Shown here in pieces: positions 35,572-41,175 of a stretch of DNA of 64,000 bases; the stretch's first letter is position 1; each line of letters opens with the position of its first letter. The translations under genes and the position numbers were made by a program. The stretch covers positions 1-64,000 of the forward strand of contig CAVOID010000015.1 in NCBI GenBank assembly GCA_963695875.1, in the 5' to 3' direction. Source of the stretch: an uncultured delta proteobacterium. GTDB taxonomy: Bacteria; Desulfobacterota; Syntrophia; Syntrophales; UBA2185. The notes under the pieces were generated by a model, which was given only the letters and a program-made list of their open reading frames with translations, ran no database searches and was not told the origin of the DNA.

Positions 35572-36498
35572 ATGAACGAGAACGAGAGCGGGAAAAAGGG
35601 ACTTACGGGGAGCAGAGTTTTCGGGCAATTGCCCAAAGAGAAGTGGGATGAGCTCACTAGGGCTATGGAGAACCAGGTGGTAGCACGGCGTACGATCATC
35701 TTCAGGCAGGGGGATCCAGGGGACAAGTTTTACATTATCCATTCAGGGAAAGTGAGGGTGTTCAGGAAGGACGCTGATGGATTGGAGACGGACTTGTCTT
35801 TGCTGGGAGCGGGTGAAAGCTTTGGTGAGATGGCCCTGCTGACAGGTGAGACGAGATCAGCGAACGTGGAGGCGGTAGAAGAGACCCGCCTAAAGGTGCT
35901 TTCCAAAGAGCAATTTGAGCTTATTCTGAAGGACTTTCCCCATATTTCCCTGGCCTTTGTGAAGCAGATGTCGGGATGGCTTCTGAGGGATGAGAAGACC
36001 ATTGAGAAGGAAGCGCAACAACTTTACCGGGCACATCACATATCCTGGTTTGATTTTCTGCTGGTGATCGGGGTGAGTGTAATTCTAGCCCTCGTGTTCA
36101 ATAAGTCTAACCCGAACGGGATACCCCTGTTTCCGAAGTTTCCTGACAGGAAAGCGATTTCCGAGATCAGCGCTGCTCAGGCGATGGAAGAGGTGAAGAA
36201 GGGCGAAGCGCTCATCGTGGATGCTGGTCCTGAAGCCTTCTATGAAAAGAAACATATCCAGGGGGCGATCAGCATACCGCTCTCTCTTTTTGATATAGTG
36301 TATACGATGGCCTTTGGAGGGAATGAGAAGGGGAAAAAGGTGATTGTGTACGGAGGAACATTCAGCAAGCTCTATGATTGGGAGCTGGCGGACAAGCTCC
36401 TTCTTCGGGGGCATAAGGATGTGAAGGTGTTGGAGGGGGGGATGGCGACCTGGGAAAAAAAGGGCTATCCGGTGGAGGAGGAGAAAGGGAAGGAATGA
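35572..36498 (+). CDS. cNMP-binding domain - TM helix - rhodanese-like fusion protein
   Basis: IFRQGDPGD and FGEMALL...RSANV (cNMP domain), a hydrophobic helix, then HIQGAISIP and [12 protein letters not shown]. The active-site position reads YGG, not YC. Confidence 0.85.
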
Positions 36499-36998
36499 TC
36501 CATACATTTCTAAAACAGATTGTGACGAGTCCGTATCTGGCGCTGATTCTGAGGGTGTTCGTGGGCTATATCTTTCTGTACGCTAGCGTGAGCAAGATAC
36601 CGCACCCTGCGCAGTTTGCGGAAGCGACGGCAGCCTATCAACTGATCCCGTACTGGTTTCTGAATGTGGGGGCTATACTATTGCCGTGGATCGAGTTTGT
36701 GAGCGGGCTGTTTCTGATCATCGGGCTGAGGACGAGGGCGGCGGCAACCCTCATCGGTCTGATGTTGATCATGTTCACCGTGATGGTCCTGACCAACATG
36801 TACTGGGGAGCGTCTATTACGTGTGGGTGTTATGATACGGTGGGGGAGCCTATTGGGTGGAAGAAGGTCAGTGAGGACATATTACTGCTCCTCTTCACGA
36901 TACAGATTTACTTCTGTGACAGGTTGTTCATCTTCCGCAGGGGGGGCTTAATGCCCAGCATAAAGGGCATGGTCGCTACTCTGACAGGATTGCAATAA
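36495..36998 (+). CDS. MauE/DoxX family membrane protein
   Basis: LILRVFVG...[16 protein letters not shown] and the conserved CGC motif. Confidence 0.85.
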
Positions 36999-37006
36999 GG
37001 TGGCCT

Positions 37007-37372
37007 ATGATGCACACATCAAGATTTCAGGATTATGGATTGATGGTTGGTCTTTGCGTGCTTCTGATGCTTCTGCTCTCATGTGAGTCCAAGGATAAAT
37101 ACGCGGGAGTATACAAAGCGGTGGGGAATGAGTCGGTGAAGCAGGGGGAGACCGTCTTGGAATTGAAGGGGAATGGGGATGGTCTGTGGAGAGTGGCCTC
37201 TGATGAGGTAGCGGGAACCTTCGTAGAGGTCCCCTTTGTGTGGTACATCAAGCAGGGGGAGTTGCGGGTGAACACCAGAGCAGGGGGAGTGATTGTGGGG
37301 AAGATAGGGAAGGACACCATTCAGATGACCCTCCCAGGCTCCAAAGTGATGACCTTCAAGAAGATCCAATAA
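37007..37372 (+). CDS. small lipoprotein of unknown function
   Basis: Lipobox LLSC followed by a beta-rich domain. Confidence 0.7.
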   Translation: MMHTSRFQDYGLMVGLCVLLMLLLSCESKDKYAGVYKAVGNESVKQGETVLELKGNGDGLWRVASDEVAGTFVEVPFVWYIKQGELRVNTRAGGVIVGKIGKDTIQMTLPGSKVMTFKKIQ

Positions 37373-37398
37373 GTCCAGAGGTCGAATCTCGGAAGCAG

Positions 37399-37827
37399 CT
37401 ATCTATTCCCATTGGGTTCGACTGGATACTTCGCTACCTCCCAGGCCCTCCATCCGCCCTTCAATGCGTATATCTTCTTGTATCCTTTCTCCATGAACTG
37501 CAGTGCCGCACGGGCACTGGTCGCTTCATCGTGTCACTTACAATAAAAAACTAATGTTTTCTCTTTTGGATACTTGTTGATCCAGGAGGTAAGATAGCGG
37601 ACGTCCTCGTGAACAGCCCCCTTGATCTTGTTCTTGCTGTTCTCCCAGTCGTGGACCGTCCTCACATCGATAACGATGACATCGGGATTCACAAGCTGCG
37701 CTTTCAGCCCATCAATAGACATCTTCTGCACACTCTCGGGGGTGAGCTCCGTCGCGGCGAAACTAACCGTTCCCGCGAAACCCACCGCAAGCACCATCAA
37801 GGCCAGAAAGAATACTGTTTTTCTCAT
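37399..37827 (-). CDS. exported rhodanese-domain selenoprotein (C-K-U; Sec at the in-frame UGA 37536-37534), 142 aa
   Basis: Reading through the UGA gives HDEATSARAALQFMEKGYKKIYALKGGWRAWEVAKYPVEP and completes the rhodanese fold. A SECIS-like hairpin lies at 37501-37519. Confidence 0.9.
37501..37519 (-). other. putative bacterial SECIS element (CAGUGCC-CGUGC-GGCACUG)
   Basis: 7 bp stem; the loop follows 21 nt after the UGA. Confidence 0.8.
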
Positions 37828-38052
37828 TTATCCCTCCTTTTGCGCCGGTCAATTGTTAAGGGTTACTTCTTAAGTCTCTTCTCATATTTTTTGGAAGGTC
37901 ATTTATGGCTACTGTAAGTAAATCGGCTGGGTTCTTGTCATGCTCAACGGCAACAAATCTTAGTTTCTTTATAAACGTGCTAATCAAGACGAAATGATAC
38001 CACTTTTCAGATAGTCTTGAGCGTGTATTAATCACCCCGCATCGCTTCAAGA

Positions 38053-38364
38053 TTACTGGATGATCTGCGGTTTCCCTTCGATCGGGAATTCTTGCTTGGC
38101 CAGACCCTCTACAATCTTCTCGATACTGGTTTTTGCATCGTCGAATTTTACCGTGACTTCGTGAGTTAATTGGTTCGCATCATATTGCAGCACGCCCGGG
38201 ATTTCCTTCAGGGTAGCACGTACCCATTTAGCCGAGTCCGGTCACTCACATCCGGGAACTACCATTTTGACAATTCTTTCGGCAGCAAAAATGGGTTGTG
38301 ATGCGACGAGCAGGAACATCACACTCAAAAGACAGACGATCAGGGAATGTTTACTCCGCTTCAT
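38053..38364 (-). CDS. exported HMA/MerP-CopZ-like selenoprotein (G-C-E-U; Sec41 at 38244-38242), 103 aa; absent from the ORF track
   Basis: MKRSKHSLIVCLLSVMFLLVASQPIFA signal peptide, AERIVKMVVPGCE-U-PDSAKWVRATLKEIPGV...VTVKFDDAKTSIEKIVEGL HMA pattern, GAGGGG RBS, and a SECIS-like hairpin. Confidence 0.85.
38211..38225 (-). other. putative SECIS element (GGGUA-CGUGC-UACCC)
   Basis: Same loop and 21 nt spacing as in the rhodanese genes, with a different stem sequence. Confidence 0.8.
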
Positions 38365-38983
38365 GGGTATTCCCCTCAATATTTTTGGGTTAGATTATAC
38401 GGATGCCTCTTTCTAAGAGATGGGTCTTCTATACATAGTTTACATTTTTTATTTCTCAAACAAATTGGTTAAATCGGATAGAAGGGTTAAGTGGATAAGA
38501 TATAAATGAACGAATATAATTTTATACTTATGTGAATTTATATAGTGATTCTTCTTCTATGTCAAGCTAATTTTGTCACTAAATATGTCCGGTATAGCTG
38601 TCGATTTCCACGAGTATGCTTGTGAGAGTTTTTCGATGATCGCTGGTAGATATCAGAAGGTCAAGCATTTGTATGAATTTCTCCCCGGTCTCATGATCTC
38701 TAAAAACATAGGGAGAATTCCGTTCTCTAAACTATATGTGCCAACAGAGTAGAAGATTACCGTTAAAAACATTCACTTTCACTGCCCACGTTATGGTACC
38801 TCATAAAAAATAAATCATGCCCCTTCTCTCTTTCAAAAATTACTCTCCGGTGGATGGAAGGATGCTCATATTGGGCAAAAGTCATATCTGGCAAAGATCA
38901 GGACGCATATTTTTTACAGCGAGCAAGGCTCCTCCATGCAGCCGGAAAAAGAAAATGATCAAAGAACCAGATGACCAAATAAC

Positions 38984-39487
38984 CTATTTGGCAGAACGCA
39001 CCGGGAGAACCCGGCTGCTGATGACGTACGACTGGGGATTCCAACTCCGTTCGCCGTACCGGAAATTGAAGACGGCGGCGGCGGAATCGCGCGTCGCCGA
39101 GTTCCATAACCAAAAACAGGTAATATCTATCAACTCCGTTGCGATATGAATATTATAGCTTCGATTGCATGCTCCTGGACGGGATTTACTCGCATCATAC
39201 AGCCCCATCAATTCATCCTGCGTTGGCATCCGCCAGTCCGTATAGCCGCCGCCGCGATAATTCTCGCAATAACTCTTGGCATCCGCCCAGTTTATGTTGC
39301 GTTCATTGTCCTTTGCCGCCCACATTAGGTTCGTCTGTGTGTCCAGGACCGTCCCATCATCATAGGCGATGAAACGACCGTCTCTGGCGATCTCTCCGGC
39401 TGCGGCATATTCTGCAAAAACAAAAGTACCTATATAAAAAACCAACACCATTGCCGCAATGAAAAAGCCCTTTCTCAAGTCAGTCAT
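38984..39487 (-). CDS. exported DUF1566 (Lcl C-terminal) domain protein
   Basis: DGTVLDTQTNLMW, WADAKSYC, GYTDWRMPTQDEL and VLPVR motifs. Confidence 0.85.
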   Translation of the reverse strand: MTDLRKGFFIAAMVLVFYIGTFVFAEYAAAGEIARDGRFIAYDDGTVLDTQTNLMWAAKDNERNINWADAKSYCENYRGGGYTDWRMPTQDELMGLYDASKSRPGACNRSYNIHIATELIDITCFWLWNSATRDSAAAVFNFRYGERSWNPQSYVISSRVLPVRSAK

Positions 39488-39500
39488 ACGTTCACCTCTC

Positions 39501-39600
39501 ATAATTCTAATCTCTAGGGGTTAAATTTCCCTAAGCTTACTTCGCTCGTAAAGGACCCGAACCTTCAGATACCCCGCAGCTTGCTGCCAGGGTAGTTCAT
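39501..39600. repeat. second copy of the palindromic intergenic repeat
   Basis: ATACCCCGCAGCTTGCTGCCAGGGTAG, related to 28318-28404. Confidence 0.55.
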
Positions 39601-39706
39601 TTTGTTTTTTCCACTAACCGCTTGGCTTTCCGGCGTTGCCACAGTATTTCAACGATGTATCCGTAGGCTCCAGCCACTCACAAAAATTGACGGATGATTA
39701 AGACAC

Positions 39707-39738
39707 AAAACCCCGCTCTCGCTTGAGAAACGGGGTTT
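39707..39738 (-). terminator. intrinsic terminator-like hairpin
   Basis: AAACCCCG...CGGGGTTT stem with a T-tract on the minus strand. Confidence 0.5.
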
Positions 39739-40125
39739 CGATAAGCTCTTCATGGCACCACCCTTACAAAAAGGGTTCAGACTAGTTGTTAACCTTTTGA
39801 CGATGCCCTATTTAAATATGATTATTTTTTGCTCTCAATTCTTTGAAAAGTCAAGAGACAAATTTCATTGATAATCATTTGAAAGGATGTATATCTATCA
39901 AAACCACGGGACACTGCCTTCACCCTCAGAATCTATTATCCATGAGACCTAACGATTACCATTGTAAGAATCAATATTTCCCTAACATTAATGGTTAGGA
40001 GGAAGTAGCGGATTATCGCTGTCACCCGAGAGCTGTGCAGATCAATTTGAAAGCGATTATCATGACAAGTCGCTAAGACGAAAAATCAAAAAACCTATTA
40101 CCGAGGTTACAATAAGAAAATTAAT

Positions 40126-40557
40126 TTATTTAGGTTCGATTGGATACCCCGCATCCGTCCAGGCATGAAAACCACGCTTGAGGGCGCTTACCTTTTTAAA
40201 GCCATTGTCCAATAATATCTGTGCCGCACGGGCACTTGTCGCTTCATCGTGTCAGGTACAGTATGTAATGATCTCTTTGTCCCTCGGCAGTTCGTTGCTT
40301 CTGACCTCCAGTTGAACTATGGGAATCCTGATGGCCCCTCTTATCCTGATCTTGCTATCGGCATATTCTCGTCCCGCTCGGACATCAACAATCACTATGT
40401 CCTCACCTTTATCCATCTTAGCCTTCAGTTCCTGCACTGTGATTCTTGGAACTACATCGTCTGCAGATAAAACAACCGATACGATCAGCTGATTCAGTAC
40501 ACCGAAGAGCAGAGAAAGAAAGAGACCCTTTAAAAACCATCTCATCGCCATCCTCAT
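40126..40557 (-). CDS. second exported rhodanese-domain selenoprotein (C-T-U; UGA at 40254-40252), 143 aa
   Basis: Reading through the UGA gives HDEATSARAAQILLDNGFKKVSALKRGFHAWTDAGYPIEPK then TAA. A SECIS-like hairpin lies at 40221-40235. Confidence 0.9.
40221..40235 (-). other. putative SECIS element (GUGCC-CGUGC-GGCAC)
   Basis: 5 bp stem; the loop follows 21 nt after the UGA. Confidence 0.8.
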
Positions 40558-40689
40558 CTCATCCTTCCGGGGTAAAATGCTTCTTAATTGCTGTGTCTAA
40601 AACTTACTGAATAACAAGTCGAGATCCAGACTTTATTATAATGCATTAAGCCAGCTCAAAAATTGGGTGGGTCGTGGGTTGCTTGTTTA

Positions 40690-41175
40690 TTATTCCTTTT
40701 TTACTGAACGGGGGAAACAGCATTCCCAACTTGGCATACCATCTTCCTCGTTGCGAAGTTTCATGGTGAAATCACCCTTGCTTATTTCCGTGGCAATGAT
40801 CGCATTACCATACTTCTTACCCCTTACTTCAACCTTGTCGCCGGCCATAAATTTGATCTTCTGATTTTCAATGAACCACTTGGGTCCCATATAGACGACA
40901 TACTTGTTATTCTGATCCGTAATGAATCTCATCTGCAGACCGTCTTTCACACCTTTCATCGGCTCAACTCTCGTTACTTTACCGGGCTCCACCACTATTG
41001 CTTCCATTCCCGTAAATGATGTCTCGGCATCAAGTCCGGGAACTCCCAAAGTCCATGCACCCCTTGATACAGGGCCCGAGGACTGAGATGCCTGAGCAAA
41101 CAGCTCTGGTGCGAAAGTCATGCTCACCAAGAACATCATTGCAACTACAACCGTCCAACGTGCTACCTTTCTCAT
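40690..41175 (-). CDS. exported OB-fold-like protein with a C-terminal Cys-Cys
   Basis: AGGAGG RBS, signal peptide, VYMGPKWF...GDKVEVRG...LRNEEDGMPSWECC. Confidence 0.7.
   Translation of the reverse strand: MRKVARWTVVVAMMFLVSMTFAPELFAQASQSSGPVSRGAWTLGVPGLDAETSFTGMEAIVVEPGKVTRVEPMKGVKDGLQMRFITDQNNKYVVYMGPKWFIENQKIKFMAGDKVEVRGKKYGNAIIATEISKGDFTMKLRNEEDGMPSWECCFPRSVKKE

Follow-up and report, generated by a model that had tools for sequence, protein, structure and literature searches.

The 64,000-nucleotide stretch of an uncultured delta proteobacterium analysed here (contig CAVOID010000015.1, positions 1 to 64,000; the window) carries on its minus strand three small genes, two encoding rhodaneses and one a heavy-metal-associated (HMA), MerP-like protein, whose reading frames (37399-37827, 38053-38379 and 40126-40557) are open only when an in-frame TGA is read through as selenocysteine (Sec, U). 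In all three the UGA is separated by 21 nucleotides (nt) from the pentaloop CGUGC of a short hairpin, a candidate bacterial Sec insertion sequence (SECIS) element. The gene at 37399-37827 encodes a protein of 142 residues with a hydrophobic, signal-peptide-like N-terminus and the motif YCKU, termed here rhodanese 1. Its Pfam Rhodanese domain (54.9 bits) spans the TGA, and the protein scores 160.9 bits against the NCBIfam model NF041203 (rhodanese_LYCAU; cut-off 115). The Sec codon, residue 98, occupies 37536-37534, and the hairpin (37519-37501) comprises a 7-bp stem, CAGUGCC/GGCACUG (37519-37513 and 37507-37501), which closes the loop at 37512-37508. Rhodanese 2 (40126-40557; 143 residues, motif YCTU) likewise has its TGA within the Pfam Rhodanese domain (58.3 bits) and scores 123.7 bits against NF041203 (same cut-off). 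Its Sec codon is residue 102 (40254-40252) and its hairpin (40235-40221) displays a 5-bp stem, GUGCC/GGCAC (40235-40231 and 40225-40221), around the loop at 40230-40226. The HMA gene (38053-38379, motif GCEU), which may in fact begin at ATG 38364, encodes a protein with a hydrophobic N-terminus and a Pfam HMA domain (38.1 bits, threshold 24.8) that includes the TGA. The Sec codon, residue 46 (38244-38242), is located in the metal-binding loop, and the hairpin (38225-38211) consists of a 5-bp stem, GGGUA/UACCC (38225-38221 and 38215-38211), and the loop at 38220-38216. A previous reading of these letters alone, referred to below as the sequence-only reading, had described the three UGA, 21 nt and CGUGC arrangements with stems of 7, 5 and 5 bp, and the sequence agrees with that description.

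The two rhodaneses of the window are distant paralogs, with 36% protein identity and 52% DNA identity overall. The near-identity of the pair from the TGA through GGCAC, previously counted as 32 of 33 nt, was borne out, the correct count being 33 of 34 nt. Over the 11 codons that start at the TGA, 10 are identical, while elsewhere in the pair the same codon is used at 18 of the 37 identical residues (Fisher p 0.013). A search with rhodanese 1 over 401 genomes of the phylum found a match in 128, a single in-frame TGA being present in most of the strong ones. At the 29 best-match loci outside the genome of origin, the TGA is aligned with residue 98 of rhodanese 1 without exception, and 20 further regions provided 15 more Sec-type genes, one form with the TGA one codon later and six relatives with Cys or Ser. 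The 46 Sec-type rhodaneses, rhodanese 2 included, align from the TGA without gaps (alignment A1), and in 42 of them a 5-nt loop located exactly 21 nt past the TGA is closed by at least five contiguous pairs. A 7-pair helix is paired in 82.9% of the cells of A1, compared with 18.9-48.8% when the partner strand is slid by one to three columns, and none of 500 shuffles reached any of five pairing measures. Compensatory changes are found within the stem; one pair is UA in 31, CG in 10 and UG in 3 sequences, and another is CG in 43, AU in 1 and UA in 1. The loop has G at position 2 and a pyrimidine at position 5 in 46/46 sequences, with U (24) or G (22) at position 3; its first base is A or U in 16/46. 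Fourteen loop sequences occur, led by CGGGU (10), CGUGC (8), CGUGU (6) and AGUGU (5). An additional lower helix (columns 8-12/40-44), which appeared when rhodanese 1 was folded as a single sequence, was rejected, being paired in 66.1% of cells compared with 66.0% after shuffling and equalled by 273 of 500 shuffles.

The rhodanese hairpin is encoded within the conserved codons T-S-A-x-x-A, such that the loop CGUGC is read as Arg-Ala (CGU GCN). More generally, the loop corresponds to the in-frame codons N-G-K and N-Y-G, and the residues of the Sec forms are thereby limited to R/S/G/W and V/A/L/T/M, respectively. In contrast, the six relatives devoid of TGA, which have Cys or Ser at the aligned codon, place H, N, P, A or E at the first loop codon, outside the restriction seen in Sec forms. 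Five of the six have 0-1 bp at the place of the hairpin, and G is found at loop position 2 in none. The family offers a clean example of protein-coding sequence that doubles as an RNA signal, with the loop codons limited in the Sec forms. Two departures from the common arrangement were observed. Relatives of the LYCAU type with the motif Y-U-x-U, where a TGA takes the place of the Cys codon in C-x-U as well (L025:1768-1812, L033:1588-1632 and L066:895-939), have two UGAs one codon apart, 27 and 21 nt ahead of a single hairpin. In the form with the motif C-C-S-U (L076; G035:C15, near 458), the TGA lies one codon later and the hairpin is unmoved, giving a spacing of 18 nt instead of 21.

The HMA gene has a narrower distribution, with matches in 17 of the 401 genomes; 16 of the 18 matches carry TGA at the aligned codon or at the next one. 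In the alignment of these 16 genes (A2), 95 of the 96 cells of a 6-pair helix are paired, and compensatory changes are again observed, one pair being AU in 12, GC in 3 and GU in 1 sequence, and another AU in 15 and GC in 1. All 16 loops have G at position 2 and U or G at position 3. Nine loop sequences are present, CGUGC occurring once, in the window gene itself. The sequences divide evenly between UGA-to-loop distances of 21 nt (8) and 18 nt (8): CxU forms have 21 nt, and CxxU forms 18 or 21 nt, a behaviour shared with the C-C-S-U rhodanese. The sequence-only reading had treated the different but fully paired stems of rhodanese and HMA genes as covariation; since these genes are not homologous, the term applies only within each family. 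Its wider claim, that selection acts on an RNA hairpin after the Sec UGA, was upheld by the compensatory changes among orthologs and by the lack of the hairpin in five of the six Cys/Ser relatives.

The three elements are interpreted as canonical bacterial SECIS hairpins located inside the coding sequence, downstream of Sec UGAs, with UGA-N21-CGUGC a variant within the known consensus; we assign this interpretation a probability of about 0.9. Its basis is the conserved position, the compensatory pairing, the invariant loop G, the association of the hairpin with TGA and not with Cys codons, and the presence of Sec genes. The genome (2.86 Mb in 16 contigs, 82.6% complete) encodes tRNA-Sec, SelA (609 bits) and a selD with an in-frame TGA of its own. 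By analogy with other bacteria, SelB charged with Sec-tRNA(Sec) would bind the apical stem-loop, chiefly by contacting the bases exposed at loop positions 2 (G) and 3 (U or G), and the fixed distance of the hairpin would deliver the Sec-tRNA as the UGA enters the ribosomal A site.

A number of observations weigh against this interpretation. The folds of the three window hairpins, in the order rhodanese 1, HMA and rhodanese 2, have minimum free energies (MFE) of -12.4, -8.5 and -7.9 kcal/mol (40-42-nt segments), and their z-scores relative to shuffled sequences (-0.81, -0.05 and -0.70, respectively) are not significant. Because the stability of the hairpins is unremarkable, the case for SECIS elements rests on position, reading frame and comparison across genomes. 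Related genomes are not independent of each other, so the shuffle counts overstate the support. The rhodanese stem is, moreover, nearly invariant in sequence, and part of the apparent conservation of structure could be conservation of sequence, with the conserved T-S-A peptide as its alternative source. One Cys-form rhodanese (L061:375-419; G081:C38) keeps a 5-bp stem, GCGCC/GGCGC, with the loop AAUGU; it resembles a gene that switched from Sec to Cys not long ago. A third rhodanese of the same genome (G000:C11:57003-57437, minus strand; L058:385-429), 84% identical to rhodanese 2, retains the TGA, the 21 nt and the CGUGC loop with a stem of 3 pairs only (GCGCC/GGCAG; MFE -5.5); loop and spacing can thus persist without a good stem, and this copy may be poorly decoded or decaying. 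Furthermore, selB is present in two pieces (207 and 164 bits) that read in two frames (G000:C9:79843-81742, minus strand), and the Sec machinery would be broken if this frame shift were real. The shift, at a GGGG run near 81425-81444 of C9, and the two frames of an fdhA copy (G000:C4:230992-233065, plus strand) are probably indel errors of the assembly. Finally, the list of Sec sites described below comes from an 82.6%-complete genome and is not exhaustive, and Sec insertion and SelB binding at the three genes would follow the established bacterial pathway, from which they are taken over by analogy.

Sec codons elsewhere in the genome were located by a heuristic hairpin scan, Pfam and NCBIfam checks and a few family searches, which together gave 12 sites, including the three of the window. 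In addition to the third rhodanese, the sites outside the window comprise an HMA paralog on contig C11 (loop GGUAU, 21 nt after the UGA, 7-bp stem), which is 69% identical to the window HMA protein; two FdhA copies, on contigs C6 and C4, both with the loop GGUCU at 18 nt and with stems of 8 and 6 bp, respectively; an HdrA-MvhD fusion (GGUC, 27 nt, 7 bp); the two sites of a MerB-like protein (GGUCU, 17 nt, 6 bp, and GGUC, 19 nt, 7 bp); a glutaredoxin (Grx)-like UXX-star protein (CGGGC, 18 nt, 5 bp); and SelD (CGGGC, 16 nt, 4 bp). Overall, GGUC(U) is used five times, CGUGC four times, CGGGC twice and GGUAU once, and no loop begins with A or U. Searches of this genome for mvhD (FlpD family) and peroxiredoxin (AhpC-TSA) genes revealed no in-frame stops. 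The result is of practical use in annotation: the three window genes and at least nine further Sec codons elsewhere in the genome would be truncated by standard gene callers.

Two of these loci display unusual features. The MerB-like protein (G000:C5:147641-148312, plus strand; L004:442-1113; Pfam MerB 60.1 bits) has TGAs at residues 91 and 156, each followed by a hairpin with a GGUC(U) loop, and scores 30.9 against SaoL (cut-off 140) and 26.7 against the NCBIfam MerB model (cut-off 193); it may be a double-Sec form outside the curated models. The Grx-like gene (G000:C5:184270-184596, plus strand; L008:271-597) belongs to UXX-star family 1 (84.7 bits against NF041114) and has its U at residue 13. 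A further TGA, at residue 82, precedes the hairpin CCCCUC-GGU-GAGGGG and is either a stop or a second Sec codon.

The frequency of the motif was compared with chance. In the window, the bare pattern TGA-N21-CGTGC has 4 matches compared with 1.73 expected, a number reached by 7 of 100 shuffles, and is therefore not enriched. Genome-wide, it occurs 57 times on both strands, and when a stem of at least 5 bp is required 4 matches are left, the three window sites and one on contig C2. The latter was rejected as a Sec site, being antisense to a NuoB-like gene (Oxidored_q6). The same strict motif placed after TAA, TAG, TGC, TGT and TGG gives 0, 0, 1, 0 and 1 matches genome-wide, respectively. In a genome of the same family (G394), the stemless pattern matched 76 times, against 37 for the reversed control, and only one match could be recognised as the rhodanese. 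A more general hairpin filter, which asked for 5 bp or more of stem, an early GU in the loop, a spacing of 12-32 nt and weak coding support, returned 39 matches in the genome under study. Nine of these are confirmed Sec sites, and SelD, the Grx-like site and the third rhodanese were overlooked; hairpin grammar alone is thus neither specific nor complete. A search of positions 37000-41000 against Rfam (E up to 10) gave three chance-level matches and no SECIS family. Codon-usage scoring as a means to spot read-through TGAs was discarded, the three true genes scoring 0.13-0.28, inside the bulk of 203 candidates.

Explanations other than canonical SECIS elements were weighed against these data. 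That the TGAs are true stops or lesions of truncated genes or pseudogenes, with the hairpins arising incidentally from peptide conservation or from gene conversion among paralogs, is scarcely credible. Such an explanation could draw on the frame errors of the assembly in selB and in the fdhA copy on C4, on hairpin energies that are not exceptional, and on the identity of the paralogs at 33 of 34 nt, which could stem from gene conversion. However, 45 additional rhodanese genes and 15 additional HMA genes, drawn from many genomes, have their TGA at the same codon, the Pfam domains run on past it, and relatives without it have Cys or Ser at that codon. In addition, the stems show compensatory changes and the rhodanese family is curated as a (seleno)protein family (NF041203). 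The sequence-only reading had gone in another direction, proposing that UGA, exactly 21 nt and CGUGC constitute the SelB-binding consensus of this lineage, usable as a genome-wide selenoprotein probe, a proposal we regard as highly improbable. The motif is indeed common to three in-frame sites from two gene families that are unrelated; with its stem it is rare in the genome and real at three of its four occurrences, and the rhodanese ortholog of G394 also has the motif. Yet the two fdhA copies, hdrA and selD, together with both MerB-like sites, the Grx-like site and the HMA paralog, have other loops, and all of these except the HMA paralog also have other spacings. The proposal itself took known selenoprotein genes of this genome as its touchstone, and since fdhA, selD and hdrA have GGUCU, CGGGC and GGUC at 18, 16 and 27 nt, respectively, it is refuted by its own standard; mvhD, which it also expected to recover, has no TGA in this genome. 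As a probe, the strict motif retrieves 3 of the 12 Sec codons plus the antisense false positive. Across the phylum it fits 5/46 Sec-type rhodaneses and 1/16 Sec-type HMA genes, the HMA ortholog of G394 has the loop GGUGA, and the HMA family is evenly split between spacings of 21 and 18 nt. A motif derived from one gene cluster is therefore unfit as a genome-wide probe. What is conserved is a stem and an N-G-[U/G]-N-N loop at variable spacing, which matches the published bacterial SECIS consensus, and the shared UGA, 21 nt and CGUGC arrangement is a family- and gene-level variant within it.

It remains to be considered why adjacent rhodanese and HMA genes have the same loop. Coincidence within a small repertoire of allowed loops is the most likely explanation; by our arithmetic, the three free loop positions of the pattern N-G-K-N-Y would agree by chance in about 1 case in 32. 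The alternative, which we consider unlikely, is that the match reflects a narrow loop preference of SelB (approximately S-G-K-S-Y) or a tuning of co-expressed neighbours to the same insertion efficiency. In its favour, the 12 Sec sites use only four loop sequences, which are shared across unrelated genes, and none starts with A or U, compared with the 16/46 rhodanese loops that do so phylum-wide. The HMA paralog on C11 has GGUAU, from which the window copy differs at 3/5 positions while matching its rhodanese neighbours. Against it, only about 8 of the sites are independent, and the chance figure becomes weaker evidence once matches to any loop of the genome are allowed. The match is also less striking because GGUC(U) and CGGGC are likewise common to unrelated genes that are not neighbours. 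It is conceivable, at similarly low odds, that the SelB of this organism accepts a narrower set of loops than the general model and that this pressure moved the HMA loop to the sequence carried by the neighbouring rhodanese genes. If SelB were so restricted, loop repertoires would be lineage-specific signatures that sharpen the prediction of selenoproteins genome by genome.

The genes surrounding the three selenoprotein genes (35572-36998, plus strand; 38984-39502, minus strand) encode a protein with cNMP-binding and rhodanese domains, an overlapping MauE/DoxX membrane protein and an Lcl_C-domain protein. The N-termini of all three window selenoproteins are hydrophobic and signal-peptide-like. 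Together, the neighbouring genes and these N-termini suggest a periplasmic cluster that handles sulfur or metals.

In the SECIS element of Escherichia coli fdhF, a small apical loop exposes a G and a U that are touched by the C-terminal domain of SelB, at a fixed distance from the UGA. With GGUCU at 18 nt, the fdhA genes of the present genome place G at position 23 and U at position 24 when the U of UGA is numbered 1, which we take to be the arrangement of the E. coli element. In contrast, the CGUGC loops of the window are one codon further off, with G at position 26, and their stems are perfect over 5-7 bp, without a bulged U.

Like MerP and HMA-type selenoproteins, the window HMA protein is a small HMA fold whose N-terminus is hydrophobic and whose metal-binding loop contains Sec; 'Mercuric transport protein MerP' is named in the selenoprotein table of PMC2398784, and the comparison with published MerP selenoproteins extends to that table name. 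Its closest NCBIfam model is MerP (TIGR02052), against which it scores 41.6 bits (cut-off 92.55), and against NF041115, the UxxU metal-binding (seleno)protein, it scores 21.7 bits (cut-off 95), its motif being CxU (CxxU in relatives) and not UxxU. Because both scores are under the cut-offs of these curated models, the protein is filed only as an HMA-domain selenoprotein. A literature search combining heavy-metal-associated domain, selenocysteine and SECIS found no paper. The window rhodaneses, on the other hand, are ordinary members of the catalogued CxU selenoprotein family NF041203, being above its cut-off and sharing Y-C-x-U; no difference from the family was found, and the genome has three copies.

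The bSECISearch model of bacterial SECIS elements (Zhang and Gladyshev 2005), in the form in which it is quoted in the review PMC13188914, describes a stem-loop immediately after an in-frame UGA. Its upper stem comprises 4-16 bp and its apical loop 3-9 nt, with G within the first two loop positions (mostly N-G-[G|U]-N-N); the apical loop lies 16-37 nt from the UGA, and the MFE is -7.5 kcal/mol or lower. The host carries selA, selB, selC and selD, with selB in two frames in the assembly. Among the 12 Sec sites, 11 lie within the limits so quoted, including all three window hairpins, and the third rhodanese lies outside them. These comparisons describe an ordinary finding that leaves the known working of SECIS elements as it stands: relative to the model as quoted, the motif of the window is a narrower special case, with one loop and one spacing, and otherwise displays no substantive difference.

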